A stretch of DNA of 24,000 nucleotides from an uncultured Alcaligenaceae bacterium (GTDB taxonomy: Bacteria > Planctomycetota > Planctomycetia > Gemmatales > Gemmataceae). The stretch covers positions 536-24,535 of the forward strand of contig CAYVRB010000019.1 of NCBI GenBank assembly GCA_964453375.1, in the 5' to 3' direction. Positions 778 through 22,923 of the stretch are shown in pieces. Position 1 is the stretch's first letter. Each line of letters opens with the position of its first letter. The notes below the pieces were generated by a model that did no database searches, was not told the DNA's origin, and saw only the letters and a program-made list of their open reading frames with translations. Position numbers and translations under genes: made by a program.

Positions 778-1935
778 CTACTCGGCCCGGTGCTTCTGGT
801 GGGCCAGGACTTTGTCCACCTTCTCGAACTCGAATTCCACCGTTTCGCCATCGTGGACCTGGCGGACCCCCTCGAGGATCACCTTGTCCTTGACGGTCAG
901 GCCGCTCTTGACGACGAAGATGTCGTCGAGTTCGTTCTGCACGACGATCTCGCGCTGACGCGCGACGCGGTCCTCGCCCACGACGAAGACGTACCGCTTG
1001 TCGAGGATCTCGAAGGTCGTCCGCTGGGGAATGACGATGGCGCCGTGCAGCGTCTTGTGAATCAGGACGTTGCCGGTCTGGCCGTGGCGGAGCAGGCGCT
1101 TCGGGTTCGGAAAATCGGCCCGGAACGGGATGTTCCCGGTCTCGTTGTTGAACTTCGCCTCGATGGCGCCGATCGCGCCCGTTTCGGGAAACGTGCTTCC
1201 GTCCGCGAGGACCAGCTCGATGCGCCGCGTCTCGCCCGGCGATTCCTTGCCGTCGGTCTTCGGCGCGAGGAGCTTGTCCTGCCCCGCCTGGTATTCGAGG
1301 TAGCGGGCCTCGGGCACGTTGAAATACACCCACATCACGCTGTTGTCGGAGAGCGTGGTGAGCACGTCGCCCTCCTTGATGAGGCTTCCCTGCTGCACCT
1401 GGAGGCGATCGACGATGCCGTCGAACGGGGCGCGCACGGTGGTGAGGTTCAATTCGGCCTCGGCCAATTTGGCCCGGGCCTTGGCCTTCGACAGCCGCGC
1501 CTGCTGGAGCGCCAGTTCGTTCGGGGAAACGACGTTCTGCTTGACCAGCCGTTCGGTGTTGTTGAATTCGAGTTGCGCGAGTTCGACTTCGGCCAGTTCG
1601 GCGTCGAGCTTCGCCTGGTAGAGCGTCGGGAGGATCTTGTACATCACGTCCCCCTTCTTTACCGTCTGGCCTTCCTTCAGCGTGATCGCTTCGAGGAAGC
1701 CGTTGTCCATGGCGCAGACTTCGATGTGCCGCTGCGAGCGGATCTGGCAGACGTATTGCTGCGTGACGATCACATCCTGGACGCTGGGGCTGGTGGCGAC
1801 GATCTTGTGGTGTTCGTGGTGTTCGTGCGGTTCCTCGTGCGGGCTGCAAGCCGGCAACGTGAGACACAACAGCGCGGCGAGCGCGGAGGAGAGCGTTTTG
1901 GCGAATCGGGCGGGCGGGCTTGGCGAGTGGTACAT
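778..1935 (-). CDS. RND efflux periplasmic adaptor (membrane fusion protein, HlyD/AcrA family), lipoprotein
   Basis: Track ORF 778..1998. It has the MFP-typical coiled-coil hairpin (LDAELAEVELAQLEFNNTERLVKQNVVSPNELALQQARLSKAKARAKLAEAELNL) and beta-barrel regions. The likely start is Met22 (ATG 1935..1933), which gives a signal peptide and lipobox LTLPAC. The ATG at 1998 lies inside the predicted sigma-54 promoter. The gene lies directly upstream of the RND pump. Confidence 0.85.
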   Translation of the reverse strand: MYHSPSPPARFAKTLSSALAALLCLTLPACSPHEEPHEHHEHHKIVATSPSVQDVIVTQQYVCQIRSQRHIEVCAMDNGFLEAITLKEGQTVKKGDVMYKILPTLYQAKLDAELAEVELAQLEFNNTERLVKQNVVSPNELALQQARLSKAKARAKLAEAELNLTTVRAPFDGIVDRLQVQQGSLIKEGDVLTTLSDNSVMWVYFNVPEARYLEYQAGQDKLLAPKTDGKESPGETRRIELVLADGSTFPETGAIGAIEAKFNNETGNIPFRADFPNPKRLLRHGQTGNVLIHKTLHGAIVIPQRTTFEILDKRYVFVVGEDRVARQREIVVQNELDDIFVVKSGLTVKDKVILEGVRQVHDGETVEFEFEKVDKVLAHQKHRAE

Positions 1936-1994
1936 GACGGCCACGATGCAGGGGTATCGACGGCCCCGAGCGGTCGGGGGTCGCCTGTCGTCAC

Positions 1995-2009
1995 GCAACT
2001 CATGTGCCA
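1995..2009 (-). promoter_or_regulatory. sigma-54 (RpoN) -24/-12 promoter upstream of the RND efflux operon
   Basis: The minus strand 2009->1995 reads TGGCACatgagTTGC, an exact match to the TGGCAC-N5-TTGC core. It lies about 60 nt upstream of the adaptor ATG at 1935. Confidence 0.6.
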
Positions 2010-2503: not shown

Positions 2504-2567
2504 GTGGCGATTTCGATGCGGACATCCATGGCTTATCGCTAGACCGCCATGGATCTCGATCGTGATC

Positions 2568-3284
2568 TTAACGCGAGGGTCGGATTGATCCAATTTTGAG
2601 AACTGGCCAGCCGCGGCCGGTCACGAGTTGGCCCGTGACGGTGACAGGCTCGCCGACGAACTCGAAGTGGTCTTCGCCGAGGGGCCGGCCGTGCGAGTCG
2701 GTGGCGAGATCATAGCGGACCCCGCCGTCGGTCTTCGACACGAACAGCGGGGGGATGCCGCCACGCAGGCAGAGGATCGCGCAGCCCTTGTGCGTCTTGC
2801 CGCCGCCGGGCTTCATCGCGCCGAGGTAGCACTTCGCATCGACGATCTCGCCCGCCAATGTCACGGGCGTGGCGACTTCTTCCATCGCGCGCTCGGCTTT
2901 CCAGTCGATGGCCTGCAAGGCGGCGTCGCCGTCGCCGAGTTCGAGCATCTTCCTGCCGTCACGCTCGATCAGCGTGCCGGTCGCACGAACGCCTTGACCG
3001 TCGAACGGCCGGAGCCGATCCTGCGCGCCGAACTTGCCGGCCTCCACGAGCAGAATCGTTTCGGTCGGCGTGCGGAGCATCGCGTAGGGTTCAGCGACGG
3101 CGATGCCGTCGAAGGAGACTTCGCGGGCGTCGTCCCAGCGGCCGGGGCCGGCGGGTCGCTGCGAGGAGGAGAGGCCGGCGGCGAGCGCGAGGCCGGCGAG
3201 GACGACGCCGACCGCGAGCGGCCGCAGGAACCGCGCGAGGGCGGGCGGCATCGGGAACCAGCCGATGTAGTGTGGATCGTTCAC
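2568..3284 (-). CDS. Hypothetical membrane-anchored/exported protein with a C-terminal Cys cluster (CYLGAMKPGGGKTHKGCAILC)
   Basis: Track ORF of 238 aa. Its GTG start overlaps the stop of the upstream gene (GTGA at 3284..3281). An alternative ATG at 3251 gives MPPALARFLRPLAVGVVLAGLALAAG, a signal or anchor sequence. No family was recognised. Confidence 0.6.
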   Translation of the reverse strand: MNDPHYIGWFPMPPALARFLRPLAVGVVLAGLALAAGLSSSQRPAGPGRWDDAREVSFDGIAVAEPYAMLRTPTETILLVEAGKFGAQDRLRPFDGQGVRATGTLIERDGRKMLELGDGDAALQAIDWKAERAMEEVATPVTLAGEIVDAKCYLGAMKPGGGKTHKGCAILCLRGGIPPLFVSKTDGGVRYDLATDSHGRPLGEDHFEFVGEPVTVTGQLVTGRGWPVLKIGSIRPSR

Positions 3285-4330
3285 GGTTTCGCTCCGGGAA
3301 GGCGGACGGGTGGGACGGGCGTGCCGGGGGGCAGCGGTTCCGGATTCAGGAAGACGCGGCGGCCCTCGAGCCGGAGGCGGAAGGTGGCGATCCGCTCGTG
3401 GAAGGGCGGCGGCGAGCAGCCGTCTTCGGGGCGGTATTCCCAGCCGTGCCAGGGGCAGCTGATGCAGCCGTCGACGATCTTGCCTTCGCCGAGGGGGCCG
3501 CGTTGGTGGGCGCAGACGTTGGTGACGGCGGAGAGACCGCCGGCGTGGCGGAAGATGGCGACGCGCTCGCCGCCCGGCGTCGCGATCACCTTGGCGCGGT
3601 CCATCGGGATGTCGTTTGCGTTCCCAACGTCGATCCAGGCGACGTCGAGCGCGACGCGCCGATCGCGGCTCCGTTCGCGCCGGCCGACGGCGAGGTGCAG
3701 CCCGGCGACGGTCGCGAAGCCGGCGACGAGGAGGATCGGGTAGATCGCCTGCGTCTCGGATTGCAGCGCCCCGAGCGCGACGTGGAGCACAATCAGCCCG
3801 TAGGCCGGGTACGCGAGCATGTGCAGCGATTTCCAGGCGCTCGGCCCGAGGGTCTTCTGCCAGAAGTCGTGGCTGGTCGCGGCCATCAGGAAGAGGATCG
3901 CGAGGGCGAGAAGCCCCAGGATTTCAAAGGGGAACGCCACGAGCGAGGAATAATTCGCGTTCGCGGTGAGCAGCGAGAGGATCGGGTTGACGAGTCCAAA
4001 TCCGTGGTAGTAGCCGAGGGCGACGGCGGCGTGGCCGAGCGCGAGGAGGAACGTGGCGACGCCGAGGTGCCGGCGGTTGTAGAGGACGGGCAGGAAGCGG
4101 CGGTCGAGCCGCGCGAGCGGGCCGATGGCGAGGGCGACGTGCAGGAGGACGAACGCCGCCGTGCCGAGGGCGCGCAAGAGCAGGATCGGGAAGCCGATGG
4201 CGTCTTCGTCGAACAGCAGGGTGCCGACGGCGAGGAAGACGGCGAGGTAGCCGGCGATGCCCGCGGCGAGGATCGCGTCGTAGACGCGCTTGTTGCGGTT
4301 CCACTTCACGGGCCGATACGTCACGCTCAT
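3281..4330 (-). CDS. Ferric-reductase-like transmembrane (di-heme b type) domain fused to a C-terminal Rieske [2Fe-2S] domain
   Basis: The N-terminal ~200 aa contain six hydrophobic helices with paired His residues (LLHVALAIGPL, RRHLGVATFLLALGHA, WKSLHMLAYPAYGLIVLHV). The C-terminus has the Rieske motif CAHQRGPLGEGKIVDGCISCPWHGW (CxH...CxxH). Confidence 0.85.
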   Translation of the reverse strand: MSVTYRPVKWNRNKRVYDAILAAGIAGYLAVFLAVGTLLFDEDAIGFPILLLRALGTAAFVLLHVALAIGPLARLDRRFLPVLYNRRHLGVATFLLALGHAAVALGYYHGFGLVNPILSLLTANANYSSLVAFPFEILGLLALAILFLMAATSHDFWQKTLGPSAWKSLHMLAYPAYGLIVLHVALGALQSETQAIYPILLVAGFATVAGLHLAVGRRERSRDRRVALDVAWIDVGNANDIPMDRAKVIATPGGERVAIFRHAGGLSAVTNVCAHQRGPLGEGKIVDGCISCPWHGWEYRPEDGCSPPPFHERIATFRLRLEGRRVFLNPEPLPPGTPVPPVRLPGAKP

Positions 4331-4419
4331 CGCGGCAACCCCCGCAGGAGAATCAGGACCACGACGGGAACGAGTGCGAACCAGAGTCGAAGGTGCCAGC
4401 GGCGGTGCGACGCGGTCAC
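4327..4419 (-). CDS. 30-aa single-TM micro-protein (not in the ORF track)
   Basis: Own translation gives GTG-ACC...: MTASHRRWHLRLWFALVPVVVLILLRGLPR*. The GTG overlaps the upstream stop (GTGA 4419..4416) and its TGA overlaps the downstream ATG (ATGA 4330..4327). 25 of 30 codons end in G/C, as in neighbouring genes. Confidence 0.4.
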   Translation of the reverse strand: MTASHRRWHLRLWFALVPVVVLILLRGLPR

Positions 4420-4622
4420 GGCGAACCTCCGATCCACTTGCGGGCGAGGACCGGCCAGAGCGCGATCGTGCCGGGCAGGATCGCGAGTCGGAAGGCGAGC
4501 GACGTTCCCCGCGCGGCCGGATCGAGGCGCGTCACGCCGCGAGCGAGGAACGGCCCGGCGAACAGCAGGCCGAGGAGCGCATAGCCTGCGATGATCGCGA
4601 GGATGGCTTCGGCGACGATCAT
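4416..4622 (-). CDS. Small (68 aa) two-helix membrane protein, function unknown
   Basis: Track ORF MIVAEAILAIIAGYALLGLLFAGPFLARG...LAILPGTIALWPVLARKW. The ATG lies 12 nt after the SDR stop and is preceded by GGAGGA. Confidence 0.6.
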   Translation of the reverse strand: MIVAEAILAIIAGYALLGLLFAGPFLARGVTRLDPAARGTSLAFRLAILPGTIALWPVLARKWIGGSP

Positions 4623-4634
4623 GGTGGATCCTCC

Positions 4635-5414
4635 TCAGTCCGGCGCGTAGACGGTGCGGCCGCCATCCACGGGTAGCAGCACGCCGGTGACGAAATCGTT
4701 GTCCAGGAACGACAGCACCGCCTGCGCGATGTTGTGCGGGCTGCCCTCGCGCTTCACGAGCGTGGCGCCGATCGCCTGGCGTTTCTCCTCCTCCGGCAGG
4801 TCCGGCGGCAGCATCACCGGGCCGGGCAGGATCGCGTTCACGCGCACGTTCGGATTTCGGCTCGCCAGCTCGACCGCGAGGCAGCGCGTGATGGCCGAGA
4901 CCGCCCCCTTGCTAGGGAAATACGCGGCGTAGTGCAGGTACGGCCGCACCTCCGCCCAGTCGCCGATGTTGACGATCAGCCCGCCTTCGGGTTGCTTCGC
5001 CATGGCGAGGCCGGCGTGCTGGCCGCAGAGGAACGTGCCGAGCGCGTTCGTGTCGAAGTGCATCCGCACGTCGTCGGCGGTGACGTCTTCGAGTTTCTTG
5101 GACTGCCAGACGGCGGCGCAGTTGACGAGCGTGTCGAGGCGTCCGAAGTCGCGGAGGACGGCGGCGACCATGGTGCGAACGGCCGTCTCGTCGGCGAGGT
5201 CGGCGCGGTACGCCCTCGCGTCGACGCCGTGCTTGCGAAGTTCGACGACGGTCTCCTCGGCCTCCGCGCCGGAGCTGCGGTAGTGGACGGCGATGGCATA
5301 GCCGCGCTGCGCGAGCGCCTCGGCCACGACCGACCCGACGCGCTTCTTGCCGCTGCCCGTCACGAGGGCGACGCGATTCGATGTCATGGTTCCTTCTCCG
5401 GGAGTGTGCGTCAT
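4635..5414 (-). CDS. Short-chain dehydrogenase/reductase (SDR), pteridine-reductase/FolM-like glycine motif
   Basis: It carries VALVTGSGKKRVG (TGxxxxxG with the KR typical of the pteridine reductase subgroup), NxAA (VNCAAV) and YxxxK (YFPSK). The likelier start is the ATG at 5387 (MTSNRVALVTG), preceded by GGAGAAGGA. Confidence 0.85.
   Translation of the reverse strand: MTHTPGEGTMTSNRVALVTGSGKKRVGSVVAEALAQRGYAIAVHYRSSGAEAEETVVELRKHGVDARAYRADLADETAVRTMVAAVLRDFGRLDTLVNCAAVWQSKKLEDVTADDVRMHFDTNALGTFLCGQHAGLAMAKQPEGGLIVNIGDWAEVRPYLHYAAYFPSKGAVSAITRCLAVELASRNPNVRVNAILPGPVMLPPDLPEEEKRQAIGATLVKREGSPHNIAQAVLSFLDNDFVTGVLLPVDGGRTVYAPD

Positions 5415-6592: not shown

Positions 6593-6608
<16 letters not shown>
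6574..6608. promoter_or_regulatory. Candidate enhancer (UAS) sites: palindrome CCACGA-TATT-TCGTGG plus a third TTCGTGG half-site
   Basis: The palindrome lies at 6574..6589, and TTCGTGG recurs at 6602..6608. They sit about 100-130 nt upstream (minus-strand sense) of the -24 element. An AT-rich tract (6501..6530) unusual for this sequence lies between them. Confidence 0.3.
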
Positions 6609-8491
<1,883 letters not shown>

Positions 8492-8540: not shown

Positions 8541-9074
8541 ATGATCGCGAACGGACTGCCGCCCGCCGTCGGGCCGCTGGTGGCGGTGCTGGAGCAGTTG
8601 GACGAGTTGCTGGCCGGCCTCGCGGACGATCAGTACGTCGCGACGCCGGGCGGCCTCGTGACCAGCGGTATCGGCGGGCACGTCCGGCACAACCTCGACC
8701 ACGTCGAGGCCCTGCTCCGCGCCGCCGAGACCGGCGAACTCGACTACGACCTCCGCGAACGCGGCACCGGGATCGAACGCGACCGCGGGGCGGCCCGGTC
8801 CGCGATTCGCCAGCTCAGTTGTCAACTCCTCGATTTCGACTGGGCCGACGCGCCCGCGTCCCTCGCGATGCGGGCGATCGTCGCGCCCGACGCGCCGGCC
8901 GTCACGATGGAAACCTCGATCGACCGCGAGATCGCGTTCGTGCTGAGCCACACCATCCACCACAACGCGCTGATCGCGCTCCTGGCCAAACTGCAAGGCG
9001 CGCCCCTGCCGCCCGAGTTCGGCTATGCCCCGTCCACGCTCGCCCATCGCCGGAGCCGGCCATGTGCACGATGA
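8541..9074 (+). CDS. DinB-family (DinB_2/YfiT-like) metal-dependent four-helix-bundle protein
   Basis: ATG 8541 (MIANGLPPAVGPLVAVLEQLDELLAGL...). His-rich motifs GGHVRHNLDHVEALL and SHTIHHNALIALL are typical of DinB-fold proteins. The 3' end overlaps the next gene by 13 nt. Confidence 0.7.
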   Translation: MIANGLPPAVGPLVAVLEQLDELLAGLADDQYVATPGGLVTSGIGGHVRHNLDHVEALLRAAETGELDYDLRERGTGIERDRGAARSAIRQLSCQLLDFDWADAPASLAMRAIVAPDAPAVTMETSIDREIAFVLSHTIHHNALIALLAKLQGAPLPPEFGYAPSTLAHRRSRPCAR

Positions 9075-9790
9075 CGATCCTCCCGCTCGGTACCGATCGC
9101 GTGCGCGTCGCTTTCAACCGCGACGAGAACCGGTGCCGACCCGCGGCCCGTCCGCCCGTGCGCCGCCGATTCGGCCGGCGCGAGGCGATCTTGCCCATCG
9201 ATCCCGTGTCCGACGGCACCTGGATCGGCGCGAACGATGCCGGACTGATCCTCGCCCTGTTGAACGGCAATCCGCCGCGGCCCGTCGGCGCGAAGGCCGT
9301 GCGAAGCCGCGGCCAGATCGTGCCGGCGCTCCTCGGCTGCGATTCGCCCGCCGACGCGCTGGATCGCTTCGAACGGTCGTTGCGGCCGACCGATTTCGCG
9401 CCGTTCCGCCTCGTCGTGGTGGGTCGCGGCGTCATCGCCGACCTCCGCTGGGACGGCCGCCAGTCGATGGTCAGCAGCCGGCTGCTCGGCGGTTCGCCGG
9501 TGCTGTTCACGTCGTCCGGACTCGGCGACCACCTCGTCGAGAAGCCCCGACGGGAGCTGTTTGAACTCGTGTTCGAGACCGCGTTGGATCCCGATGCGGC
9601 GCAGGACGCCTTCCACGCCCATCGCTGGCCGGGCCGCGAACACCTGAGCGTGAACATGGAGCGAGTCGACGCCCGCACCGTCAGCCGCGCCGTCGTCGCG
9701 CGCGACGACGGCGCGATACAGTTCGACTACTTCGCGGATGGCGATTCGACGGTTCGCGAATCGCTGAGCCTTTCGGGGGCGCGGTCATGA
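9062..9790 (+). CDS. NRDE-family protein (TANGO2/DUF833-like, N-terminal Met-Cys)
   Basis: It starts MCTMTILPLGTDRVRVAFNRDENR, with Cys2 and the eponymous NRDE motif. Its stop overlaps the next start (ATGA at 9787..9790). Confidence 0.8.
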   Translation: MCTMTILPLGTDRVRVAFNRDENRCRPAARPPVRRRFGRREAILPIDPVSDGTWIGANDAGLILALLNGNPPRPVGAKAVRSRGQIVPALLGCDSPADALDRFERSLRPTDFAPFRLVVVGRGVIADLRWDGRQSMVSSRLLGGSPVLFTSSGLGDHLVEKPRRELFELVFETALDPDAAQDAFHAHRWPGREHLSVNMERVDARTVSRAVVARDDGAIQFDYFADGDSTVRESLSLSGARS

Positions 9791-11376
9791 TCCCGTTCGA
9801 CATCGGCCTCGCCGCCGGGCCGTGGGCCGTCGTCTTCGGCCTGATCGCGGCCTCGTTCGTGAACGAAGACCTCGCCTGCATCGCCGCCGGGCTGCTCCTC
9901 GCGGCCGGGAAGATCGACTGGCCGCCCGCGCTCGCCGGCTGCTTCCTCGGCATCGTCCTCGGCGATTTCGGCGTCTGGCTCCTCGGCCGCGCCGCCGGCA
10001 CCCGCGCCCTGCGCTGGCACTGGGTCCGCAAGCTCCTCACGCCCGAACGGTTCGCGAAACTCTCCGCGCAGCTCTGCGAACGCGGCGGCCGCACCGCCTT
10101 CGTCGCGCGTGGCCTCCCCGGCACGCGCGTGCCCCTCTTCCTCGCCGCCGGCATCCTCGGCGTTTGCCCCGCCCGCTTCCTCGCCTGGACGCTGCTCGCC
10201 GCCGCCGTTTGGACGCCGTCCCTCATCTTCGCCGTCGTCCTCGCCGGCGACTCGATCCTCGACCGCGGCTGGCCCGCCCTCGCCGCCCTCGGCCTCGGAT
10301 CCATCGTCGTCCCGAAGCTCGTCTCCCCGATCGGCCGGGCCAAGCTCATTGCGCGGCTCTCCAAACTCTGGCGCTGGGAGTTCTGGCCCGCGTGGCTCTT
10401 CTACCTGCCCCTCGTCCCGTGGTATCTCGTCCTCGCCCTCCGGTACCGCGGCGCCACCGTCTGGACCGCCGCGAACCCCGGCATCGTCCCCGCCGGCGGC
10501 GTGGTCGGCGAATCGAAGGCCGACATCCTCGCTCGGCTTCCGGCCGACCGGATCGTTCCCACGCGGCTCATCCCGCCCGGCGATGTCGCCGACCGACTGC
10601 GGCTCGTGCAAGAAACCGATTGGGAGTTCCCCCTCATCCTGAAGCCGAACGTCGGCGAACGCGGGACCGGCGTGCGCAAGCTGCACGACCTCGTGGACGT
10701 GGAAAAATACCTGATCGAAAACCCCGACGCGGTCGTCGCCCAACCGTTCCACCCCGGCCCGTTCGAGGCCGGTGTCTTCTACTATCGCCTGCCCGACGAA
10801 GATCGCGGCCACATCTTCTCGATCACGGATAAAGTCTTCCCGGTCGCGATCGGCGACGGCCGGTCCACGCTCGAAGAGCTCATCTGGTCCCACCCGCGCC
10901 ACCGGATGCAGGCGAAGGTCTTCCTGACGCGGCACGCGGAGCAACTTGGGCGCGTGCTCGACGTCGGAGAGCGATTCGCCCTCGCCACCGCGGGGAACCA
11001 CTGCCAGGGCACGCTGTTCCGCGACGGGAGCGATCTCCGGACGCCCGAAATGGAAGCCGCATTCGACGCCCTCGCCCGCCGCTTCGATGGATTCTTCATC
11101 GGCCGATTCGACGTTCGCTACTCCGATGAAACCGAGTTCCGCGCCGGCCACGGGTTCGCAATCGTGGAGTTGAACGGCGTGGCATCCGAATCGACCAACC
11201 TCTACGACCCGTCCTGGTCCCTGGGGCGCGCGTACCGAACGTTGTTCCGCCAGTGGGCGCTATTGTTCCGCATCGGCGCCGCGAACCGCCGACGCGAGCA
11301 CCGGCCGGCAACCGTCCGCGAACTGTTCGGACTCCTGCGGGAGCATCGCCGCCGACAAAATCCCGGACCGGCGTAA
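9787..11376 (+). CDS. Fusion protein: N-terminal DedA/VTT-type membrane domain plus C-terminal ATP-grasp ligase-like domain
   Basis: The N-terminal ~200 aa are polytopic, with the DedA-like FVNEDLACIAAGLL...FLGIVLGDFGVWLLGR...ARGLPGTRVPLFLAAG. The C-terminus is ATP-grasp-like: FPLILKPNVGERGTGVRKL...VVAQPF...GRFDVRY...AIVELNGVASESTNLYDP. Confidence 0.75.
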   Translation: MIPFDIGLAAGPWAVVFGLIAASFVNEDLACIAAGLLLAAGKIDWPPALAGCFLGIVLGDFGVWLLGRAAGTRALRWHWVRKLLTPERFAKLSAQLCERGGRTAFVARGLPGTRVPLFLAAGILGVCPARFLAWTLLAAAVWTPSLIFAVVLAGDSILDRGWPALAALGLGSIVVPKLVSPIGRAKLIARLSKLWRWEFWPAWLFYLPLVPWYLVLALRYRGATVWTAANPGIVPAGGVVGESKADILARLPADRIVPTRLIPPGDVADRLRLVQETDWEFPLILKPNVGERGTGVRKLHDLVDVEKYLIENPDAVVAQPFHPGPFEAGVFYYRLPDEDRGHIFSITDKVFPVAIGDGRSTLEELIWSHPRHRMQAKVFLTRHAEQLGRVLDVGERFALATAGNHCQGTLFRDGSDLRTPEMEAAFDALARRFDGFFIGRFDVRYSDETEFRAGHGFAIVELNGVASESTNLYDPSWSLGRAYRTLFRQWALLFRIGAANRRREHRPATVRELFGLLREHRRRQNPGPA

Positions 11377-11406
11377 CCCCGGCCGGTCGCCGAGCATCCA
11401 ACCACA

Positions 11407-11431
11407 AACGCGGACCGAATCCGTCCGCGTT
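11407..11431 (+). terminator. Perfect 9-bp stem-loop after the ATP-grasp gene (possible terminator/attenuator, no U-tract)
   Basis: The sequence is AACGCGGAC-cgaatcc-GTCCGCGTT. It is followed by GAGGAGG (11436..11442) and the ATG at 11452. Confidence 0.35.
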
Positions 11432-11451
11432 CCCCGAGGAGGTATTCCAGC

Positions 11452-12033
11452 ATGTTCGGCCGATCCCTGTTCGCCCTGACCTTCGCCGCCGCGTTCGCCG
11501 TGGTGGCACTCGCCGCCGACCCGCCCACCCCGGCCGCCGCCAAGATCGGCCCGAAGGTCGGCGACGAAGCGAAGGACTTCGAGCTGTCCGCCCTCGACGG
11601 CGAGAAGGTGAAGCTGTCGAAGCTGACGGCCGACGGGCCGGTGGTCCTGGTCGTCCTGCGGGGCTACCCCGGCTACCAGTGCCCGATCTGCACCAAGCAG
11701 TTCGCCGAGTTCCGAACGCAGGCCGACGCCTTCAAGGCGGCTGACGCGCGCGTCCTATTTGTCTACCCCGGCCCGGCCAAGGGGTTGAAGGATCGCGCGG
11801 ACGAATTCGTGAAGGGGAAGGACTACCCGGCCCACTTCACGATCCTCCTCGACCCCGACTACGCGTTCACGACCGCCTACGGGCTGCGGTGGAACGCGAA
11901 GAACGAGACCGCCTACCCGTCCACGTTCGTGATCGACCGCAAGCGAACGGTGACGTTCGCGAAGGTCAGCACCACGCACGGCGACCGGGCGAAGGTCAAG
12001 GACTTGCTCGCGAAGGTCGGTGGGAAAAAATAG
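11452..12033 (+). CDS. Secreted thioredoxin-fold peroxiredoxin (AhpC/TSA-redoxin family, Bcp-like)
   Basis: The signal peptide is MFGRSLFALTFAAAFAVVALAA. The redoxin core FELSALDGEKVKLSKLTADGPVVLVVLRGYPGYQCPICTKQFAEF contains a CPxC centre. Confidence 0.8.
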   Translation: MFGRSLFALTFAAAFAVVALAADPPTPAAAKIGPKVGDEAKDFELSALDGEKVKLSKLTADGPVVLVVLRGYPGYQCPICTKQFAEFRTQADAFKAADARVLFVYPGPAKGLKDRADEFVKGKDYPAHFTILLDPDYAFTTAYGLRWNAKNETAYPSTFVIDRKRTVTFAKVSTTHGDRAKVKDLLAKVGGKK

Positions 12034-12357
12034 GACGCGCCGCATGTCGGCCCATCGAGAGCAAACCCGGTACCGCCCGCCAGATTGATCGGCCGGGGGG
12101 TGGCCGGTACTCACGCGCTTCCGTCCCGTCGCGAGTGAGCGCCGGCCGTTCGTACCATCGCCAGGATTCCGATGCGAAGGGCCTCCGGCAGACTTGTCCA
12201 AGAGTCGATGAGCGAGAGCACTTCGGGATCGAAGACGGCCGGTGCGCCGGATTCTACGCCGCCGGACTCGAAATGCGGCGATTTCCCCATAAGTTCGACG
12301 AGGGTTCCAATCCCTCCCGCTCCGCTGTCATTTCTCGGCGTATGGGGATCTTCCGCC

Positions 12358-15300
12358 ATGCCCGCGCGCGAACCTGAGAAAGCCCCGGTCAGTCAAACCG
12401 GCCCGTGGACGCCGCAGACGGTCGTTTCGGCCGACGATTCGACCGGTGCCGCCGGAACCGAAGCCGCGTGGGACGGTCCGTCGCCCGTCATGCCCGGCTA
12501 CGAAATCCTCGGCCTCCTCGGCCGCGGCGGCATGGGCGTCGTCTATCGCGCCCGGCAGAGGCCGCTGAATCGCATCGTCGCCCTCAAGATGATCCTGTCC
12601 GACCGGGACCGCGCGGACCGGAAGGAACTGATTCGCTTTCTCGCCGAGGCCGAGGCCGTCGCGGCCGTGAAACACCCGCACGTCGTGCAGGTGTTTGAAT
12701 ACGGCGATAGCGAAGGCCGGCCGTTCCTCGCGCTCGAATACCTCGCCGGCGGCAGCCTCGCGGACCGTCTCAAGTTCCGCGGCCGACTCGAACCGAAACC
12801 GGCCGCGCGACTCGTGGCGCAGCTCGCGCAGGGGGTTCAGGCCATTCACGATCGCGGCATCGTCCACCGCGATCTCAAGCCGGGCAACGTTCTCTTCGAC
12901 GAATCCGGCGAGCCGAAGATTTCGGACTTCGGCCTGGCCAAGCGCGACGACCGCAACGACCTGACGGCGCGGCAAGCCATCATGGGCACGCCGGCGTACA
13001 TGTCGCCGGAGCAGGCCACGGGCGGCACCAAGTTCGTCGGCCCCGCCGCGGACGTGTATTCCCTCGGCGTGATCCTCTACGTCTGCCTGACCGGTACGAA
13101 ACCGTTCGAGGACGACGACCCGATCAGTCTGTTGCGGAAGGTTGCGGAAGAGGAACCGGAGCGCCCGCGCCGGCGTGTGCCGGGCTTGCCGCGCGATGTG
13201 GAATTGATCTGTTTGAAGTGCCTGGCGAAGGCGCCGCACGATCGCTACGCGACCGCGCAGGCGCTGGCGGACGACCTGGCGCGATTCGCGGCGGACGAAC
13301 CGGTGAGCGTTCGGCCGGCGGGCGCGATCGAACGCGCGGTGAAGTGGTCGCGACGCAAGCCCGCGCTGGCGACGGCGTACGGGCTGGCATTTTTCTCGGT
13401 CATGATCATCCTGTTCGGGGGCGGAGCGTTTGCGTTGTGGAGGACTCGCAAACAGGATGAAGCGAATCTGAAAAATGATCACGCCCGCGAGCGGGCCCGA
13501 AACTTGCTCGCGCTCGCTGCCGACGCCCGTAAGGATTATCGGTACGCTGCGGCGGAGCAAAATCTGTCGGAAGCGGGTGAACTCGCAGCGACGTTCGCCC
13601 CGGACCTCGACGCGGCTGTGAATCAAGCGAAGGCGGACCTCTCGTTCGTCCGTGAACTCGACGAGATTCGGATGGAACGTTCGACATGGCTTCCCGGTAT
13701 CGATGGTGGCGATGGACATTTTGAATCGGAACAAGCACCAAGGAAGTATCGAGACGCATTCCTGACACGAAAACACGATGTGGTTGCGAACCCCGAAGCG
13801 ACCGGAGCCACGGTGACCCAATCGGCGATTCGGATCGATCTCTTGGCCGCATTGAACGATTGGGCAATTTTGGAACCCGATGCGTTCATTCGAGACAGAG
13901 TCTTATCGGCCGTCGGTCGAGCGGACCCGAATTCCCCGGCAGCGCCCTTTCGTGATCCCGCCATTTGGCAAGACAGTAGCCAACTCTTGGCTTTGGTGGC
14001 AAAAATCGAAAAGACGCAGCTCTCGTCCGGCGATGCGATTGCCATCGCGTCAATCATGACAAAGCAAGGTTTGGACGCCGCACCGCTCTTACGTCGTACC
14101 ATGGCGCTCAATCCGCGCGATTTCCTGCCGCCATATACGCTGGGGATGATACTTCCGGCAGGTCCCGCCAAGAATCCCGAACGGGTCGGGGCGTTCCGGG
14201 CAAGTCGGGCCATCCGACCGGACAACGCCGCGGTGCTCGCCGCATTGGGGCACGCCCTCCACGGAATGGGCGACATTCCCGGCGCTCTCGCGGTATGGAA
14301 GGAAGCCGCAAGGGTCGATCCTCGCCACGCCCTCATTCACACGCAATTGGGTATCGGTTTGAAGGATTCCGGAGATTTGCCGGCCGCGATCGCGTCCTAT
14401 AAGGAAGCTGTACGACTGGATGCGAAATATTTTTTGGCCCACTACAATCTCTCGATCGCCTTGAAGGCATCGGGAGATCTCCCCGGCGCCGTCGCGTCCA
14501 TCCAAGAAGCCATTCGCCTCAAACCCGAGAGCGCCTTCTCTCACAACAACCTCGGGACTTATTACTGGGCCCAAGACCGCGACGGCGAGGCGATCGCCGC
14601 ATTCAAAGAAGCGATTCGACTCAATCCCAAGTACTTGTATCCACGGAATAATCTCGGAGGCGTGTATTCCCGTCAGAAGAAGCACGTCGAGGCGATTGCG
14701 GAGTTCAAGGAAGCGATCCGGCTCGATCCCAAATACGTTTCGCCCCACATCGGTCTCGGACACGCGTACTTGGATCTGGAGCAATATACGGAGGCGATCG
14801 CGACATTCAAAGTCGCGAATCGGTTGGATCCCAAATCAACTCTACCACTGATCGGTTTAGGCTCGGTCTATCACAAGCAGGAAAAGTACGCGGAAGCAAT
14901 TGCCGCGCACAGAGTCGCCATTGGCATCGACACCAATAGCGCTGCTGCCTACTCGTGTCTCGGAGATTCTCTGAGAGCCAGTGGGGAATTGGATGAAGCG
15001 ATACTTGCATATCGAGATGCGATTCGTCTCAAGCCGATGAAAGCCGAGTATCATGCCGAATTGGGGGATGCGCTGGCCGACGCGGCGCTCTGGGCGGACG
15101 CGGTCGCGAACTATGCCAACGCAGTCGATCTCGATCCCCAACTCGCGTCCGTTCACAATAGTTTGGCGTGGCTCTTGTCGACGGGACCTACCGAGATTCG
15201 CAATGGAAAACGGGCCGTCGAACACGCGGAAAAGGCCGTGAGATTGACCGAAGGAAACAAGGCGATTTATATTGATACTCAGGCGGCCGCGTTTGCGGAA

Positions 15301-17430
15301 TCGGGTGATTTCGCCAAGGCGATTGAATCCCAGAAGCGAGCGCTCGCCGTACCGGAATATGTACGAGAACTCGGTACCGAAGGTCGGAAACGGCTGGCGC
15401 TCTATCTGCGAAATCAACCGTATCGCGATACGATCATGCAAGCCCGAGGACACTATCACCGTGGTATGTCATTTCGGAATCGTGGCGATTTCGAGAACGC
15501 GATCGCACAACTCCAGGCATCGATCCAACTTGCGCCAAACGATCTCGCCACCCGCAAGACGCTGGAACATCTGTTGAAAGATAAGGCCGAAGCTGGCCTG
15601 ACCTTGCTGGAACATACTTCCGCAACGCGGGCACTCGGATTCAGTTCCGATGGATCCATGATCGTCACGAGCGACTCGAAACTCGTCCGGATCTGGAATG
15701 CGAAAACGGGAAATACATCGTTCAAACTGGAATCGCCAAGTCCCGTCGCACGCGTGCAGTACGGACCGAATGGACGAGTCCTTTCCGTATGCAATTTAGA
15801 ATCCGTCGTCCGACTGCACGATTCCGCCACGGGAAAATTGAAAGGCCTTGTGCGTTCGCCCAAGGGCATTTTGATCGATGCCATCTTCGGAGCGGCAGGC
15901 AATCGAATCGTCGCGTTGAGCGCCGGCGGCTCCTTCTTCGTGATGGAACCCGACGGAATGCTCGTCAAATCCTTTCCCGCGTTCGAGGGAAAACTTTCGG
16001 TCACCAGAATGGCTGTCAGTCCCGATGGGAATCGTGTATGCGTGGGTCTCGGTATCGGCTCCGAATGGAGCGGAAAAATATGGGATCTCTCTTCGGGGAC
16101 GCCGGTCGCCTCGTGGAAGGCCGGGGTCATCTATTCGGTGGCATGGAGCCCGGATGGCAAGTCGATTGCTTCGGCGGAAGCGGACCGCCAATTGTTCATT
16201 CGTGATGCCGCGACGGGGCTCCCTCGAACGGTGATTCCTGTCAACCAATCGTCCTCTACGACGGCGTCGGCCGTTGCGTATGGTCGCGATTCCAACACGG
16301 TGGCGATCGTGTGCTTCAACGGCACCGTGGAAGTGTGGGACCTCGGCGCGAAGAAAATCGTATTCGCACGCAAGTTGGATCCGACCGAGATCGGCCCCGG
16401 AGCTGCAACATTCAGCCCTGATGGCAAGAGGCTCGCGGCCAGCGCTCCGGGAATCGTCCGGATTTGGGATCTGCCGTCCTCCATCGTACTTCCAAGACCG
16501 AACGCGATGTCCGGTGAAATCGCCGTTCCAAGTTCGCTACGTCAAATCATCCCACAGACCGGTTCCGTCCTCGCCTTGGGTTTCAGTCCGGACAGTGCTC
16601 GCCTCGTCGTTGGGGACACGAAGGTCGTCCGCGTTTGGGATGCGCGAACCGCGCGTGAAGTGTTTACGCTCAACGTGCCGGGGAATCAGTTTCGCGCGTC
16701 GTATAGTACTGCCGGGCATATTCTCTCTTTGAGCAATTCGGAATTCACCGTTCGCCTTTGGGACGCCGCGACCGGCAAGCCACTGCCGGCATTGCCGACA
16801 CTCCAAGGCGCCGTGCGTGAAGCCGTATTCTCGCCGGACGGAAAGCGCGTCGTCTGTGCCGATGCTACGGGGGCTTTCTCGGTGCTGGACCTTCCAAGCA
16901 ATAAGCTTACGCGTAGTGCCGTCGCATTCGACCCTAAACATATCCTCAACGGATTCGCAATCAGCCCCGACGGTCGAAAAGTTTGTTTTGGTACGGGCAA
17001 ATCGCCCGATTGGTCGGTAAAGGTCTGGGACCTCGAGCAAAACAAAGTGGTTCTTTCCACGCCGTCCCAGGAAAAACCCGTCTGGAGTGTCGCCTGGAGC
17101 GCGGACGGGAAGTGGATCGCCTCCGGCGGGGTCGATCAATCGGTGAAGGTCTGGCACGCCGACACTGGCAAACTTCACAAGACCCTCGCCGGCGCGACGA
17201 AGACCGTCGCGCGCGTCGCCATCCATCCCGACAACCACCGCATCGCGGCCACCTGCTTCGACGGCGTCGTTCGCGTCTGGGAGGTCGGGACGGGACAAGT
17301 GGTCGAATCCTTCACGTTTGAGAATCCCGGCATCGGCAACGTCGTCTTCAGTCCGGACGGCCAGAGGCTCGCCGCCAGCGCTCCGGGCGCGGTCAAGATT
17401 TGGGAATTGTCGGGCGCGAAGCGGCCCTGA
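12358..17430 (+). CDS. Ser/Thr protein kinase - TM helix - TPR array - two tandem WD40 beta-propellers (1690 aa from ATG 12358)
   Basis: Hanks kinase motifs are GRGGMGVVYRA, VALK, HRDLKPGNVLF, DFGLA and GTPAYMSPEQ. The TM helix is ALATAYGLAFFSVMIILFGGGAFALW. More than 12 34-aa TPR units follow (AIAxFKEAIRLDPKY...), then WD repeats (FSPDG...VRIWD) to the stop. The track ORF begins at 12172, but the ATG at 12358 gives the usual short leader before the PGYEILG kinase start. Confidence 0.9.
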   Translation: MPAREPEKAPVSQTGPWTPQTVVSADDSTGAAGTEAAWDGPSPVMPGYEILGLLGRGGMGVVYRARQRPLNRIVALKMILSDRDRADRKELIRFLAEAEAVAAVKHPHVVQVFEYGDSEGRPFLALEYLAGGSLADRLKFRGRLEPKPAARLVAQLAQGVQAIHDRGIVHRDLKPGNVLFDESGEPKISDFGLAKRDDRNDLTARQAIMGTPAYMSPEQATGGTKFVGPAADVYSLGVILYVCLTGTKPFEDDDPISLLRKVAEEEPERPRRRVPGLPRDVELICLKCLAKAPHDRYATAQALADDLARFAADEPVSVRPAGAIERAVKWSRRKPALATAYGLAFFSVMIILFGGGAFALWRTRKQDEANLKNDHARERARNLLALAADARKDYRYAAAEQNLSEAGELAATFAPDLDAAVNQAKADLSFVRELDEIRMERSTWLPGIDGGDGHFESEQAPRKYRDAFLTRKHDVVANPEATGATVTQSAIRIDLLAALNDWAILEPDAFIRDRVLSAVGRADPNSPAAPFRDPAIWQDSSQLLALVAKIEKTQLSSGDAIAIASIMTKQGLDAAPLLRRTMALNPRDFLPPYTLGMILPAGPAKNPERVGAFRASRAIRPDNAAVLAALGHALHGMGDIPGALAVWKEAARVDPRHALIHTQLGIGLKDSGDLPAAIASYKEAVRLDAKYFLAHYNLSIALKASGDLPGAVASIQEAIRLKPESAFSHNNLGTYYWAQDRDGEAIAAFKEAIRLNPKYLYPRNNLGGVYSRQKKHVEAIAEFKEAIRLDPKYVSPHIGLGHAYLDLEQYTEAIATFKVANRLDPKSTLPLIGLGSVYHKQEKYAEAIAAHRVAIGIDTNSAAAYSCLGDSLRASGELDEAILAYRDAIRLKPMKAEYHAELGDALADAALWADAVANYANAVDLDPQLASVHNSLAWLLSTGPTEIRNGKRAVEHAEKAVRLTEGNKAIYIDTQAAAFAESGDFAKAIESQKRALAVPEYVRELGTEGRKRLALYLRNQPYRDTIMQARGHYHRGMSFRNRGDFENAIAQLQASIQLAPNDLATRKTLEHLLKDKAEAGLTLLEHTSATRALGFSSDGSMIVTSDSKLVRIWNAKTGNTSFKLESPSPVARVQYGPNGRVLSVCNLESVVRLHDSATGKLKGLVRSPKGILIDAIFGAAGNRIVALSAGGSFFVMEPDGMLVKSFPAFEGKLSVTRMAVSPDGNRVCVGLGIGSEWSGKIWDLSSGTPVASWKAGVIYSVAWSPDGKSIASAEADRQLFIRDAATGLPRTVIPVNQSSSTTASAVAYGRDSNTVAIVCFNGTVEVWDLGAKKIVFARKLDPTEIGPGAATFSPDGKRLAASAPGIVRIWDLPSSIVLPRPNAMSGEIAVPSSLRQIIPQTGSVLALGFSPDSARLVVGDTKVVRVWDARTAREVFTLNVPGNQFRASYSTAGHILSLSNSEFTVRLWDAATGKPLPALPTLQGAVREAVFSPDGKRVVCADATGAFSVLDLPSNKLTRSAVAFDPKHILNGFAISPDGRKVCFGTGKSPDWSVKVWDLEQNKVVLSTPSQEKPVWSVAWSADGKWIASGGVDQSVKVWHADTGKLHKTLAGATKTVARVAIHPDNHRIAATCFDGVVRVWEVGTGQVVESFTFENPGIGNVVFSPDGQRLAASAPGAVKIWELSGAKRP

Positions 17431-17478
17431 CGCCGGCACGAACGATTCCCGGAGATTCGGAATTCCCATCGCGCCCCT

Positions 17479-17700
17479 CCCGTCCTGGACAACCTGCAAA
17501 CCCACAAGGTCCAGGCCGCCGTCGACGCGGTGCACGCCGTCGGCGCCCGCGTGCTGTACCTGCCGCCCTACAGCCCCGACTTCAATCCGATCGAACAAGT
17601 CTTCTCCAAGATCAAGAACGAGTTGCGACGCCGCGAACTCCGCACCATCCCCGAACTGGAAAACGCCTTCGGCGAATCGCTCGATTGGATCACTCGCAAG
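17479..17700 (+). pseudogene. IS630/Tc1-mariner-type DDE transposase, C-terminal fragment only
   Basis: The frame reads PVLDNLQTHKVQAAVDAVHAVGARVLYLPPYSPDFNPIEQVFSKIKNELRRRELRTIPELENAFGESLDWI. This carries the family signature LDN..HK ... LPPYSP-x-xNPIE. No upstream part and no start are present, and it is broken at about 17700 by the rve sequence. Confidence 0.7.
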
Positions 17701-17704
17701 GAGC

Positions 17705-18694
17705 GTCGAGTTCCTTCGCGAGGAGAACCGCATCCTCCGCAGCAAGCTGCCGGAACGGATCGAGATCACGCCGCGCGAGCGATCCCGGCTGTTGAGGTTT
17801 GGACGGAAGCTTGGCAAGGCCATCGGCGGCGTCATCACCATCGTCTCGCCGCGGACCTTTGCCCGGTGGCTCGCCGGCGAGAAGAAACGGCCGAAGCGAA
17901 GCAGCCGCAAGCCGGGCCGGCCACGGACGGAGGAAAGCGTTCGCGATCTCGTATTGCAGTTGGCCCGCGAGACGGGCTGGGGATACTCGCGCTTTCTCGG
18001 CGAGTTGAAGAAACTCGGCATCGGCACCGTGAGTCGCTCGACGGTGATCAACATCTTGCGCGTGGCCGGTCTCGATCCCGGGCCGAAGCGCGGCGTCGGA
18101 TCGTGGAGCGACTTCCTGACGCGGCACGCGGAAACCTTGTGGGCCAGCGACTTTCTCACCGTGAAGACCTGGACCACGCGCGGGATCGTCGATCTGTCAG
18201 TGCTGTTCTTCATCCACCCCGGCACGCGGAAGGTGTTCATCGGCGGCGTCAGCGCGAACCCGGACGCGGCTTGGATGAAACAGCAAGCCCGCAACGCGAC
18301 GATGCGGATGGAGGAGATGGGGCACCCGGTCTCGCACCTGATCATCGATCACGACGGGAAGTACGCGAAGGAGTTTGATGCAATCTTCGAGGCCGAGGAT
18401 GCGAAGGTGCAGCGTGTCGGGCCGAGGGCCCCAAACTTGAACGCCCATGCGGAGCGGTTCGTCCAATCGCTCCGGAACGAGTGTTTGGATCACTTCGTTT
18501 TCTGCGGCGAGAAGCATGTGCGGCACGTTTTGACGGATTATTTGGCCCACTATAACTCGGAGCGGCCGCACCAGGGGATCGGCAACGTGCCGCTGTCGGA
18601 CGGTGCCAAGGCCGTGAAGCCCACGAAGGGCCGGATCAATTGCCGCAAGCGACTCGGCGGGCTGATCCGGCACTACCACCGCTCCGCGGCGTGA
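17705..18694 (+). pseudogene. rve (integrase-core, DDE) transposase lacking its 5' end and start codon
   Basis: The frame reads VEFLREENRILRSKLPERIEITPRERSRLLRFG...GRPRTEESVRDLVLQLARETGWGYSRFLGELKKLGIGTVSRSTVINIL (HTH region). The DDE core follows: LWASDFLTV..., HLIIDHDGKY and NLNAHAERFVQSLRNECL. The 129 aa preceding it in track ORF 17318..18694 are out-of-frame readthrough of the kinase and IS630 sequence. Confidence 0.8.
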
Positions 18695-18898
18695 AGCCGA
18701 TCGAGATTGCGGGCGGTTCCGATCGATCTGATCGCGTCGAAGGTCCGCGCTCGCTCGCAAATCGCCCCGTTTCTGTAAACGCATGTCCACCAAACGTTGC
18801 TCGAATTTGGACATCCCTTGTCCTGCTCCGGTTGCGGTTTCGTCTGGAAATTGCAGCGCGAACGATTGGACAGAGTTTTTGACCAGGACGGACGCACA

Positions 18899-19252
18899 CT
18901 ACCGGCTTTCGTATTTAATTAATTGGCTCATGTACTCATGAAATGCTTCGTCAATCTTTTTGTGGCATACAGATTCCCATATGAATAGCAACTGATCTAA
19001 TGGCCCCTCATGAGGCACCATGTCTCCGCCAAAACCAATACAGTTATCGGCTCGAACGACGCCATCTGCACCCGAGTATGCGATTTCGTTCTCCGCTGTT
19101 GTAAACGCAAGATTCGGACATCGCTGCCCCGAAACCCCGGCAGTGAAACAATGCAAACTAGGCATTGAACGTCCATCGCTGCAAATGCAGGCTACATCCT
19201 TTTCGCCTTCGGAATCACGAAGACAATATATCTCTAATATAATGTGCCTCAT
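18899..19252 (-). CDS. Hypothetical 117-aa Cys-rich protein; candidate immunity protein for the orphan RHS toxin
   Basis: Track ORF MRHIILEIYCLRDSEGEKDVACICSDG.... It is same-strand, 87 nt downstream of the RHS stop, and shares the low G+C of the toxin tip. No family was recognised. The call rests on position only. Confidence 0.45.
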   Translation of the reverse strand: MRHIILEIYCLRDSEGEKDVACICSDGRSMPSLHCFTAGVSGQRCPNLAFTTAENEIAYSGADGVVRADNCIGFGGDMVPHEGPLDQLLFIWESVCHKKIDEAFHEYMSQLIKYESR

Positions 19253-19339
19253 CAGTCACCTTGGCAAGCTGTCAGTGTTACACCGGAGCAGTAGAATAAC
19301 AATGTATAATAACTGCCTGAAATACCAAAATAATAGATG

Positions 19340-22723: not shown

Positions 22724-22923
22724 CCAGGTCCGGTTGCCGTTGGCGTCGTAGCCGAAGGTCGTGTCGTTGTCGAGCGCGTCGGTGACGACGACGACGCGGT
22801 CGAGCTCGTCGAACTCGTAGGCCGTCTCGTAATCGAGCGGATCGATGACGGTGACGATCCGGTCGGCGTCGTCGTAGAAGTGAGTAGCGTCTCCTATCCT
22901 TTCCCGTCCCTTTTTTAATCCAC

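Follow-up and report, generated by a model that had tools for sequence, protein, structure and literature searches.

A membrane-linked DinB/NRDE/DedA-ATP-grasp operon of a Gemmata-like planctomycete as a candidate module for aminolipid modification

The window studied here is a stretch of 24,000 nucleotides from contig CAYVRB010000019.1 (assembly GCA_964453375.1, family Gemmataceae of the Planctomycetota), and our subject is an operon on its forward strand whose three overlapping genes encode a DinB-fold metalloprotein, an NRDE/TANGO2-family protein, and a fusion of a DedA/VTT membrane domain with an ATP-grasp ligase domain. We propose, with about an even chance of being right, that this cassette specifies a membrane-bound module acting on amino-acid-containing membrane lipids (aminolipids), which here would be ornithine lipids. 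An earlier, sequence-only reading had suggested a pathway concerned with small thiols, redox chemistry or lipid modification; its lipid option was supported, and its small-thiol option was not. The operon most likely modifies aminolipids rather than makes a small thiol, because among the sampled genomes the cassette occurred only in those that have an aminolipid synthase, and often next to the synthase genes.

Loci carrying the cassette were collected from genomes and metagenomes (113, of which 90 remained after near-duplicates were removed), and their genes were scored with purpose-built hidden Markov models (HMMs). In 16 of the 90 loci, a gene for an OlsF/OlsB-type N-acyltransferase was separated from the cassette by 15–1800 bp, every time on the opposite strand; the OlsF-like gene of one locus (L031) matched the curated OlsF model over its full length with 408 bits. 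At the same locus, a TMEM164-family gene (7436–8209) adjoins both the OlsF-like gene and a four-domain fusion form of the cassette; eukaryotic TMEM164 is an acyltransferase. Planctomycetes also have a third, unrelated ornithine-lipid pathway that employs the GH3-like OlsH and the alpha/beta-hydrolase OlsI (PMC12493201, PMC12971839), and the genes of this pathway were likewise found at the cassette. In two loci (L009 and L050), olsI and olsH directly follow the ligase gene on the same strand, and in two more (L036 and L038) the sequence ends inside olsI at an identical position, giving a partial olsI-olsH arrangement; the stand-alone alpha/beta-hydrolase genes downstream of the cassette in these four loci are olsI. 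An OlsH/OlsI-like pair is situated divergently upstream of the cassette in L023. Altogether, the cassette adjoins one or the other of two non-homologous synthase types in 21 of the 90 loci, and in 11 of the 40 whose flanks extend for 2 kb or more to either side.

The link extends to gene content. Among 150 other sampled genomes of the phylum, a PF13444 or OlsH-like gene was present in all 17 carriers of the cassette, as compared with 33 of the 133 non-carriers. PF13444 was found in 12 of the carriers and an OlsH-like gene in the other five, with no exception, and an OlsB-type gene was located within 5 kb of the ligase gene in eight of the 17. The genome from which the window was taken fits this distribution. 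The HMMs detected no OlsF/OlsB-type synthase in it, apart from one marginal PF13444 match, an absence that is explained by the OlsH/OlsI route encoded on another contig (C401), where olsI, olsG and olsH occupy positions 944–1807, 1824–2459 and 2528–4123. The products scored 431 bits (OlsI, cut-off 385), 230 bits (OlsG) and 617 bits (OlsH, cut-off 620). Because OlsG is an N-methyltransferase, the gene set suggests that the organism probably makes both ornithine lipids and methylated ornithine lipids. Neither the cassette proteins nor the hydrolase domains fused to some of them matched OlsI or OlsH; the Ols enzymes (OlsB/OlsA, OlsF, OlsH/OlsI and OlsG) share no homology with any cassette protein. 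The lipid-modification option of the sequence-only reading thus drew support from the DedA fusion, the membrane helix of the ligase described below, the adjacency to two unrelated synthase types and the strict co-occurrence.

The gene structure of the operon is compact. The DinB gene (8541–9074, 177 aa) overlaps the NRDE gene (9062–9790, 242 aa) by 13 nt, with the ATG at 9062 preceding the TGA at 9072–9074, and the NRDE gene overlaps the fusion gene (9787–11376, 529 aa) through the sequence ATGA at 9787–9790. The NRDE start codon is fixed at 9062 because the Met-Cys-Thr N-terminus of the family is nearly invariant. A scan of the operon identified no sigma-70-like promoter within it and no convincing terminator, either between the fusion gene and the redoxin gene that begins after a gap of 75 bp or elsewhere inside the operon. 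The overlaps support the view that the DinB, NRDE and fusion genes form a single translationally coupled unit. The coordinates, the overlaps and the co-translation proposed from the sequence had therefore been read correctly, and the domain assignments of the three genes were borne out by Pfam, by profile searches and by AlphaFold2 (AF2) models.

The C-terminal 335 residues of the fusion (aa 195–529, 10369–11376) match no Pfam ATP-grasp model, and the only Pfam or NCBIfam ATP-grasp model to reach E ≤0.1 on the whole fusion protein was PRK12767 (E 0.048); some ligase homologues weakly match the RimK model. A search of PDB sequences with the single domain sequence also returned no match, and a family profile was needed. 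The profile of 54 diverse homologues matched the G-domain of cyanophycin synthetase (E 1e-8) and CphA2 (E 2e-7) and then, more weakly and in this order, CPSase, Ddl, RimK-related proteins and GshAB. The AF2 model of the domain has a pLDDT (predicted local distance difference test) score of 95.6, and its top Foldseek matches were CphA1 (7wae), GshAB (3ln6), CphA2 (7ta5) and Ddl, with probability 1.0 and E values of 2e-10 to 1e-7. RimK, the characterised family to which the sequence-only reading had allowed that the domain might belong, appeared only at rank 35 in the Foldseek list and at E 0.0013 or weaker in the profile search, and no RimK-type partner genes were found in the neighbourhood of the cassette. 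Residues K286, E327, D442, E461 and N463 are invariant in the 54 homologues; K286 is the ATP-binding lysine, D442, E461 and N463 are the Mg ligands, and the set aligns with the CphA1 motifs KP..G, D and ExN. By its predicted fold and its intact Lys and Mg-binding residues, the domain is a true ATP-grasp, and carboxylate-amine ligase activity is predicted for it.

The cyanophycin synthetase G-domain, GshAB and Ddl, with which the ligase shares the ATP-grasp fold, the ATP-binding lysine and the Mg ligands, all phosphorylate an alpha-carboxylate and then add an amine. The likeness has limits, in that identity in the Foldseek alignments is only about 13–22% with a TM-score of about 0.5, and in place of the usual N-terminal pre-ATP-grasp domain the ligase has a membrane helix together with a short segment, TAANPGIPxGGxVGESK. 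The domain opens with this conserved aromatic helix, RWEFWPxWxFYxP (aa 195–220). Because stand-alone homologues keep the helix, membrane contact appears to be a property of the ligase itself. Unlike CphA, GshAB and Ddl, the ligase is also fused to a DedA domain.

The DedA/VTT domain occupies the N-terminal 195 residues (9787–10371), where Pfam VTT_dom matched aa 35–150 with 48.3 bits (cut-off 33.9). It has about five hydrophobic segments, and its conserved residues are E27, D28, G59, D60, R108, P111, G112 and R114. The acidic and basic loop residues are shared with the DedA transporters, namely the undecaprenyl-phosphate flippases UptA and PopT, and PetA, which handles phosphatidylethanolamine, whereas the scores fall far under every curated DedA subfamily cut-off. 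The closest curated family was the undecaprenyl-phosphate transporter UptA, and at 27 bits against a cut-off of 250 the match is far from equivalog level. In general terms, the architecture resembles that of MprF, an aminoacyl-phosphatidylglycerol synthase and flippase in which a cytoplasmic enzyme that modifies the lipid head group is likewise joined to a polytopic domain that translocates lipids; a partner hydrolase is present in some cases. The folds and the chemistry of the two are unrelated, however, since MprF has a GNAT-like (DUF2156) domain, draws on aminoacyl-tRNA and forms ester bonds. An ATP-grasp fusion is not among the known DedA fusions listed in PMC10127716.

The NRDE protein, which begins MCT, matched Pfam TANGO2 over aa 16–120 with 35.4 bits (cut-off 22.6), and its family profile recovered 9bwa and 8sv7, both of them structures of human TANGO2, with E 7e-6; the match is weak and covers the N-terminal half only. 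Across 89 sequences, Cys2 is conserved in 94%, as the sequence-only reading had anticipated in pointing to an N-terminal Cys, while N19-R20-D21-E22 are conserved in 96–97%, N68 in 99% and R83-G84 in 100%. These residues correspond to the catalytic set proposed for human TANGO2, which has been put forward as a cysteine N-terminal-nucleophile (Cys-Ntn) hydrolase of fatty-acid derivatives (PMC13044924). In the comparison with TANGO2 and with the Cys-Ntn amidases (acid ceramidase, NAAA, bile-salt hydrolase and isopenicillin-N acyltransferase), the conserved features are the N-terminal Cys, the NRDE motif and Asn68, and we predict from this conservation that the NRDE protein is an amidase or acyltransferase. 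A bacterial TANGO2 homologue, HtpA, has been given a haem role instead of a Cys-Ntn role, a point that is taken up below.

The DinB-like protein matched Pfam DinB_2 with 23.6 bits, just below the cut-off of 24.8. Its AF2 model (pLDDT 91.8) matched the four-helix DinB/YfiT-like structures 3dka, 2f22, 6iz2 and 1rxq at TM-scores of 0.56–0.64, and eight residues (H47, H50, H54, H137, H140, H141, R129 and E130) vary little or not at all among 77 cassette homologues. Modelling thus confirmed the DinB fold, and the conserved histidines agree with its His metal triad. Uncharacterised DinB-like proteins outrank the thiol transferases as structural matches, with YfiT (1rxq) at rank 9 (TM 0.56), MST (8f5v) at rank 19 (TM 0.46) and BstA (5wk0) at rank 29, and no MST or NCBIfam thiol-transferase model matched the protein.

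Conservation of the trio could be counted in the 44 of the 90 non-redundant loci that were adequately flanked: the DinB gene was present in 37, the NRDE gene in 36, and both in 36, in several phyla, a recurrence beyond what chance would give. The sequence-only reading held on both of the points on which it had staked itself, because the trio is co-conserved and the ATP-grasp domain lies outside characterised families such as RimK. Two gene orders occur, DinB-NRDE-fusion, as in the window, and DinB-fusion-NRDE. In some loci the VTT and ligase parts are separate genes in unchanged order, and alpha/beta-hydrolase::VTT::ligase fusions also exist. In P0127 and P0132 the NRDE protein is itself joined covalently, in single polypeptides of the order NRDE::alpha/beta-hydrolase::VTT::ATP-grasp; in P0127 the NRDE domain lies at the extreme N-terminus and begins MCT, which fits the need for an N-terminal nucleophile, and P0132 begins MLCNRDE. 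The N-terminal extensions of P0126 and P0233 were considered as DinB fusions and rejected, and a candidate NRDE gene in L025 did not hold up in a BLASTP search.

We infer from these observations a scheme that covers the substrate and its reaction, the way in which the lipid is transported, and the parts played by the NRDE and DinB proteins. At the cytoplasmic face of the membrane, the ATP-grasp domain would phosphorylate a carboxylate, most likely the free alpha-carboxylate of an aminolipid head group, a target that we favour because it is chemically like the peptide C-termini used by cyanophycin synthetase, GshAB and Ddl. Reaction of the activated carboxylate with an amine or amino acid would then give an amidated or peptide-extended head group. 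The DedA/VTT domain, together with the membrane helix, may present the lipid to the ligase and would probably move it across the bilayer. The N-terminal Cys of the NRDE/TANGO2 protein might act on a fatty-acyl amide or a head-group amide, by hydrolysis or by transfer, in the service of editing, reversal or remodelling; a metal-dependent accessory step could fall to the DinB-like protein, and a divergently encoded sigma-54 activator would probably control the operon. There are precedents for such products and for such chemistry. Ser-Gly and Orn-Ser-Gly peptide aminolipids exist, and the transfer of taurine onto the carboxyl group of ornithine lipid (the cerilipin step) is known to be ATP-dependent, with no gene assigned to it (PMC12971839); the reaction proposed here is likewise the ATP-dependent formation of an amide on a head-group carboxylate.

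A more specific proposal, whose chances we put on the low side, is that the DedA::ATP-grasp proteins are the class of ATP-dependent enzymes, long without an assignment, that amidate or peptide-extend the head-group carboxyl of an aminolipid, as in cerilipin-type taurine transfer and in the Ser-Gly and Orn-Ser-Gly peptide lipids, and that they hand the product to their own flippase domain, with the obligate NRDE/TANGO2 partner serving as an N-acyl-amide lipid hydrolase or transferase. In a bolder variant, the amine that is added may contain sulfur, so that the periplasmic redox proteins encoded nearby would be provided with a membrane-anchored thiol or sulfonate. When phosphate is limiting, and under stress, many environmental bacteria substitute aminolipids for phospholipids, and some of the head-group modifications of aminolipids, including an ATP-dependent amidation first described in the 1970s, still await genes, for which the cassette is a specific and widespread candidate. 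The cassette also places a bacterial TANGO2 relative with an intact Cys in an obligate, sometimes covalent, partnership with a ligase that would be directed at lipids, and it may offer a tractable route to the function of TANGO2, for which haem trafficking and lipid metabolism have been advanced. If the proposal is right, this disputed human disease protein would gain a defined biochemical activity. The joining of an enzyme to a transporter domain is, moreover, a new kind of DedA fusion in a family whose substrates are only now being defined. Our literature searches found no description of the cassette. Its folds are all known; the assembly, and the DedA-coupled ligation of lipid head groups proposed for it, are new.

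Several observations weigh against the aminolipid interpretation. About three quarters of the loci have no adjoining synthase gene, and in the window's own genome the ols genes are on a separate contig from the cassette, namely C401, which is only 4.3 kb long. The Fisher probability for the co-occurrence (p 9e-10) is overstated because the sampled genomes are related. The alpha/beta-hydrolase domains that are fused to some cassette proteins are generic Abhydrolase_1 types, and they were rejected as OlsI candidates since they are not OlsI-like. UptA, a transporter of undecaprenyl phosphate, is the nearest curated DedA family, though a weak match. Prediction of a complex of the ligase domain with the NRDE and DinB proteins scored 0.00, a result that lends no support to it and that, for the tool used, does not count as evidence against binding. 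Finally, redox genes are as frequent near the cassette as aminolipid synthases: the counts among 31 well-flanked loci were 13 for DoxX, 12 each for a YHS (seleno)protein and a redoxin, and 10 for an MsrQ-like::Rieske fusion. This link is real, and an aminolipid function leaves it without explanation.

One alternative, which we regard as unlikely, is that the ATP-grasp domain is itself a fourth synthase of aminolipids or N-acyl amino acids, converting a free fatty acid of the membrane to an acyl phosphate and coupling it to an amino acid, with the NRDE protein as the matching N-acyl amidase or transferase. The ligase is embedded in the membrane, OlsH provides an analogy in that it uses ATP to make lyso-ornithine lipid directly from a fatty acid (PMC12493201), and the Cys-Ntn relatives acid ceramidase, NAAA and bile-salt hydrolase have fatty-acyl amides as substrates (PMC13044924). 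The closest solved relatives of the ligase, however, activate the alpha-carboxylates of amino acids and peptides rather than fatty acids, and a modifying enzyme fits better than a redundant synthase because every carrier that we examined already has another synthase.

Also unlikely, and to a similar degree, is a role of the module in a redox or oxidative-stress system of the envelope, in which the cassette would make a membrane-anchored product that is redox-active or protective and would operate together with DoxX, the YHS (seleno)protein, the secreted redoxin and the MsrQ-like::Rieske protein. The frequency of these neighbours speaks for it, as does their arrangement in particular loci. In L033, the genes for YHS, DoxX, DinB, NRDE, VTT and the ligase succeed one another, overlapping or all but abutting, and the order in Gemmata obscuriglobus (around GobsT_10620; CP042911.1, 1289898–1311499) is DoxX-DinB-NRDE-fusion-redoxin; regulators of the extracytoplasmic function (ECF) sigma or sigma-54 type are found nearby. 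Against it, the folds of the core enzymes are not those of redox enzymes, and the redox neighbours are absent from many loci and are not constant in type, place or strand. Such a role would in any case be compatible with an action on aminolipids, and does not compete with it exclusively. The redox pathway suggested from the sequence is thus upheld insofar as redox genes recur near the cassette, and a redox-related function may be a partial rival of the aminolipid interpretation or a complement to it.

The redoxin itself (11452–12033, 193 aa) matched Pfam AhpC-TSA with 88.3 bits (cut-off 26) and Redoxin with 79 bits, and has a hydrophobic, signal-peptide-like N-terminus. Its best NCBIfam match, "SelL-related redox protein", scored 55 bits where the cut-off is 120, and the peroxiredoxin equivalogs all scored far under their cut-offs. 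The peroxidatic Cys of peroxiredoxins lies in the motif PxxxT/SxxC. In the redoxin the corresponding sequence is YPGYQCPIC, with no Thr or Ser three residues ahead of the Cys and with a CxxC instead, and for these two reasons the protein looks more like a secreted thiol-disulfide oxidoreductase. The "secreted CPxC peroxiredoxin" of the sequence-only reading is therefore right as to the secreted-like N-terminus, the AhpC/TSA fold and the CPIC sequence, while the absence of the peroxidatic motif makes "CxxC redoxin" the better name. The gene lies immediately 3' of the cassette in nine Gemmata-like loci and, among the surveyed loci, in that clade only; relatives occur within 3 kb in five other loci.

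Another explanation, improbable in our judgement, is that the module acts on a polyprenyl-phosphate-linked envelope precursor, for instance in the amidation or extension of a lipid II peptide or of a lipid-linked sugar acid, and that the DedA domain flips the carrier. COG0586-type DedA proteins are proposed undecaprenyl-phosphate flippases (PMC10127716), UptA is the best curated match of the VTT domain, and Ddl-like enzymes are among the structural neighbours of the ligase. The UptA score, however, is far below its cut-off as given above, genes for the synthesis of cell wall or glycans are not among the recurrent neighbours, and the phyletic and positional link is with aminolipid synthases.

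It is very improbable, in turn, that the operon makes or uses a soluble thiol of low molecular weight such as glutathione, bacillithiol or mycothiol or one of their type. The occurrence of GshAB among the top structural matches of the ligase, the thiol S-transferases within the DinB fold and the redoxin that follows the operon could be taken as signs of such a thiol. A soluble thiol would require neither a membrane-embedded ligase nor its fusion to a lipid-transporter domain, however, and the DinB-like protein is nearer to uncharacterised relatives than to MST or BstA and escapes the thiol-transferase models. No cysteine-adding enzyme (no partner of the cysteine-ligase type) was found among the conserved neighbours, and the distribution follows the aminolipid synthases. 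Least probable of all is a haem-trafficking role for the NRDE protein, with the cassette supplying haem or a cofactor to redox proteins of the membrane. The TANGO2 homologue HtpA of Shewanella is reported to bind haem and to aid cytochrome c maturation (PMC10470608), and the recurrent neighbours include haem-b-type MsrQ-like::Rieske and HbpS-like proteins. A haem role for TANGO2 is contested, however (PMC12782551, PMC13044924), the nearly invariant Cys2 and NRDE motif argue for catalysis, and nothing is left for the ATP-grasp ligase or the DedA domain to do.

A protein of the sigma-54 enhancer-binding type, with PAS, AAA+ and HTH domains, is encoded divergently from the operon (6593–8491, minus strand; Pfam Sigma54_activat, 251 bits). 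Full-length orthologues with 65–92% identity hold the same divergent position in Gemmata-like loci, including that of the cultured G. obscuriglobus, and relatives with 50–57% identity adjoin the cassette in four loci of the other gene order. We think that this activator is likely to be the regulator of the operon, judging from its conserved placement. Scans for a sigma-54 -24/-12 element upstream of the operon in the window and in G. obscuriglobus gave chance-level scores and no convincing site. A perfect match to the consensus, TGGCACATGAGTTGC, was found at 1995–2009 on the minus strand, just upstream of or overlapping the start of the open reading frame (ORF) at 778–1998 (minus strand); it lies downstream of the activator gene and of the redox genes described next.

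Beyond the activator gene, the minus strand carries a gene for a short-chain dehydrogenase/reductase (SDR; 4635–5414), a member of an accessory set that is found again next to the cassette in other lineages, followed by genes that Pfam and NCBIfam assign to a fusion of an MsrQ-like haem-b membrane domain with a Rieske 2Fe-2S domain (3281–4330) and to a membrane-anchored Cys-rich DUF5818-like protein (2568–3284). A plus-strand ORF at 2858–4594 was rejected as a shadow of these minus-strand genes. The Cys-rich membrane-anchored protein is encoded near the cassette in 10 of the 31 well-flanked loci, and in some loci the Rieske fusion and the Cys-rich protein are encoded directly 3' of the NRDE gene on the same strand.

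The fusion protein has more than 3000 database relatives, and the ligase domain falls into 2821 clusters at 50% identity; the relatives bear names such as "VTT domain-containing protein", "DedA with SNARE-associated domain" and "carboxylate--amine ligase". Judged by record titles and cluster names, carriers belong to the Planctomycetota, Verrucomicrobiota, Acidobacteriota, Pseudomonadota and Chloroflexota and to Leptospira. Within the phylum the distribution is patchy, with the 17 carriers among 150 genomes already mentioned, none in the 40 other sampled genera of the window's family, and one in the 11 other species of its genus, together with a 100-residue remnant in a second. Mis-binning of the window's contig was considered and rejected, since its GC content and tetranucleotide profile match the genome. 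Transposase, integrase and RHS genes flank the locus in the window and in G. obscuriglobus, and the cassette looks like an accessory trait that moves between genomes.

Two records titled "uncultured Alcaligenaceae" (L005 and L011) contain the whole Gemmata-like locus at 62–63% identity, with the same sigma-54 activator, and are probably mislabelled or mis-binned. A ligase fragment of about 100 residues (aa 405–502, 66% identity by tblastn) was detected in L118, from a genome of the window's genus (G192), and in L027 (8001–8330). No DinB, NRDE or redoxin gene was present within the 3.2 kb examined in L118, and the fragment there looks like what is left of a decayed cassette in a closely related genome.

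Directly 3' of the redoxin gene, positions 12172–17430 of the plus strand encode a 1752-aa Ser/Thr kinase with TPR and WD40 repeats; G. obscuriglobus also has a downstream kinase gene (15334–19149 in L126). From 14500 to 24000 the GC content of the window is 47–60%, as compared with 66.5% for the genome. This part includes an rve_3/HTH_32 transposase gene at 17318–18694 and, at 19340–22723 on the minus strand, a gene for a 1127-aa RHS-repeat protein with a PT-HINT pretoxin domain, and by its composition and gene content it looks like a mobile or polymorphic-toxin island.

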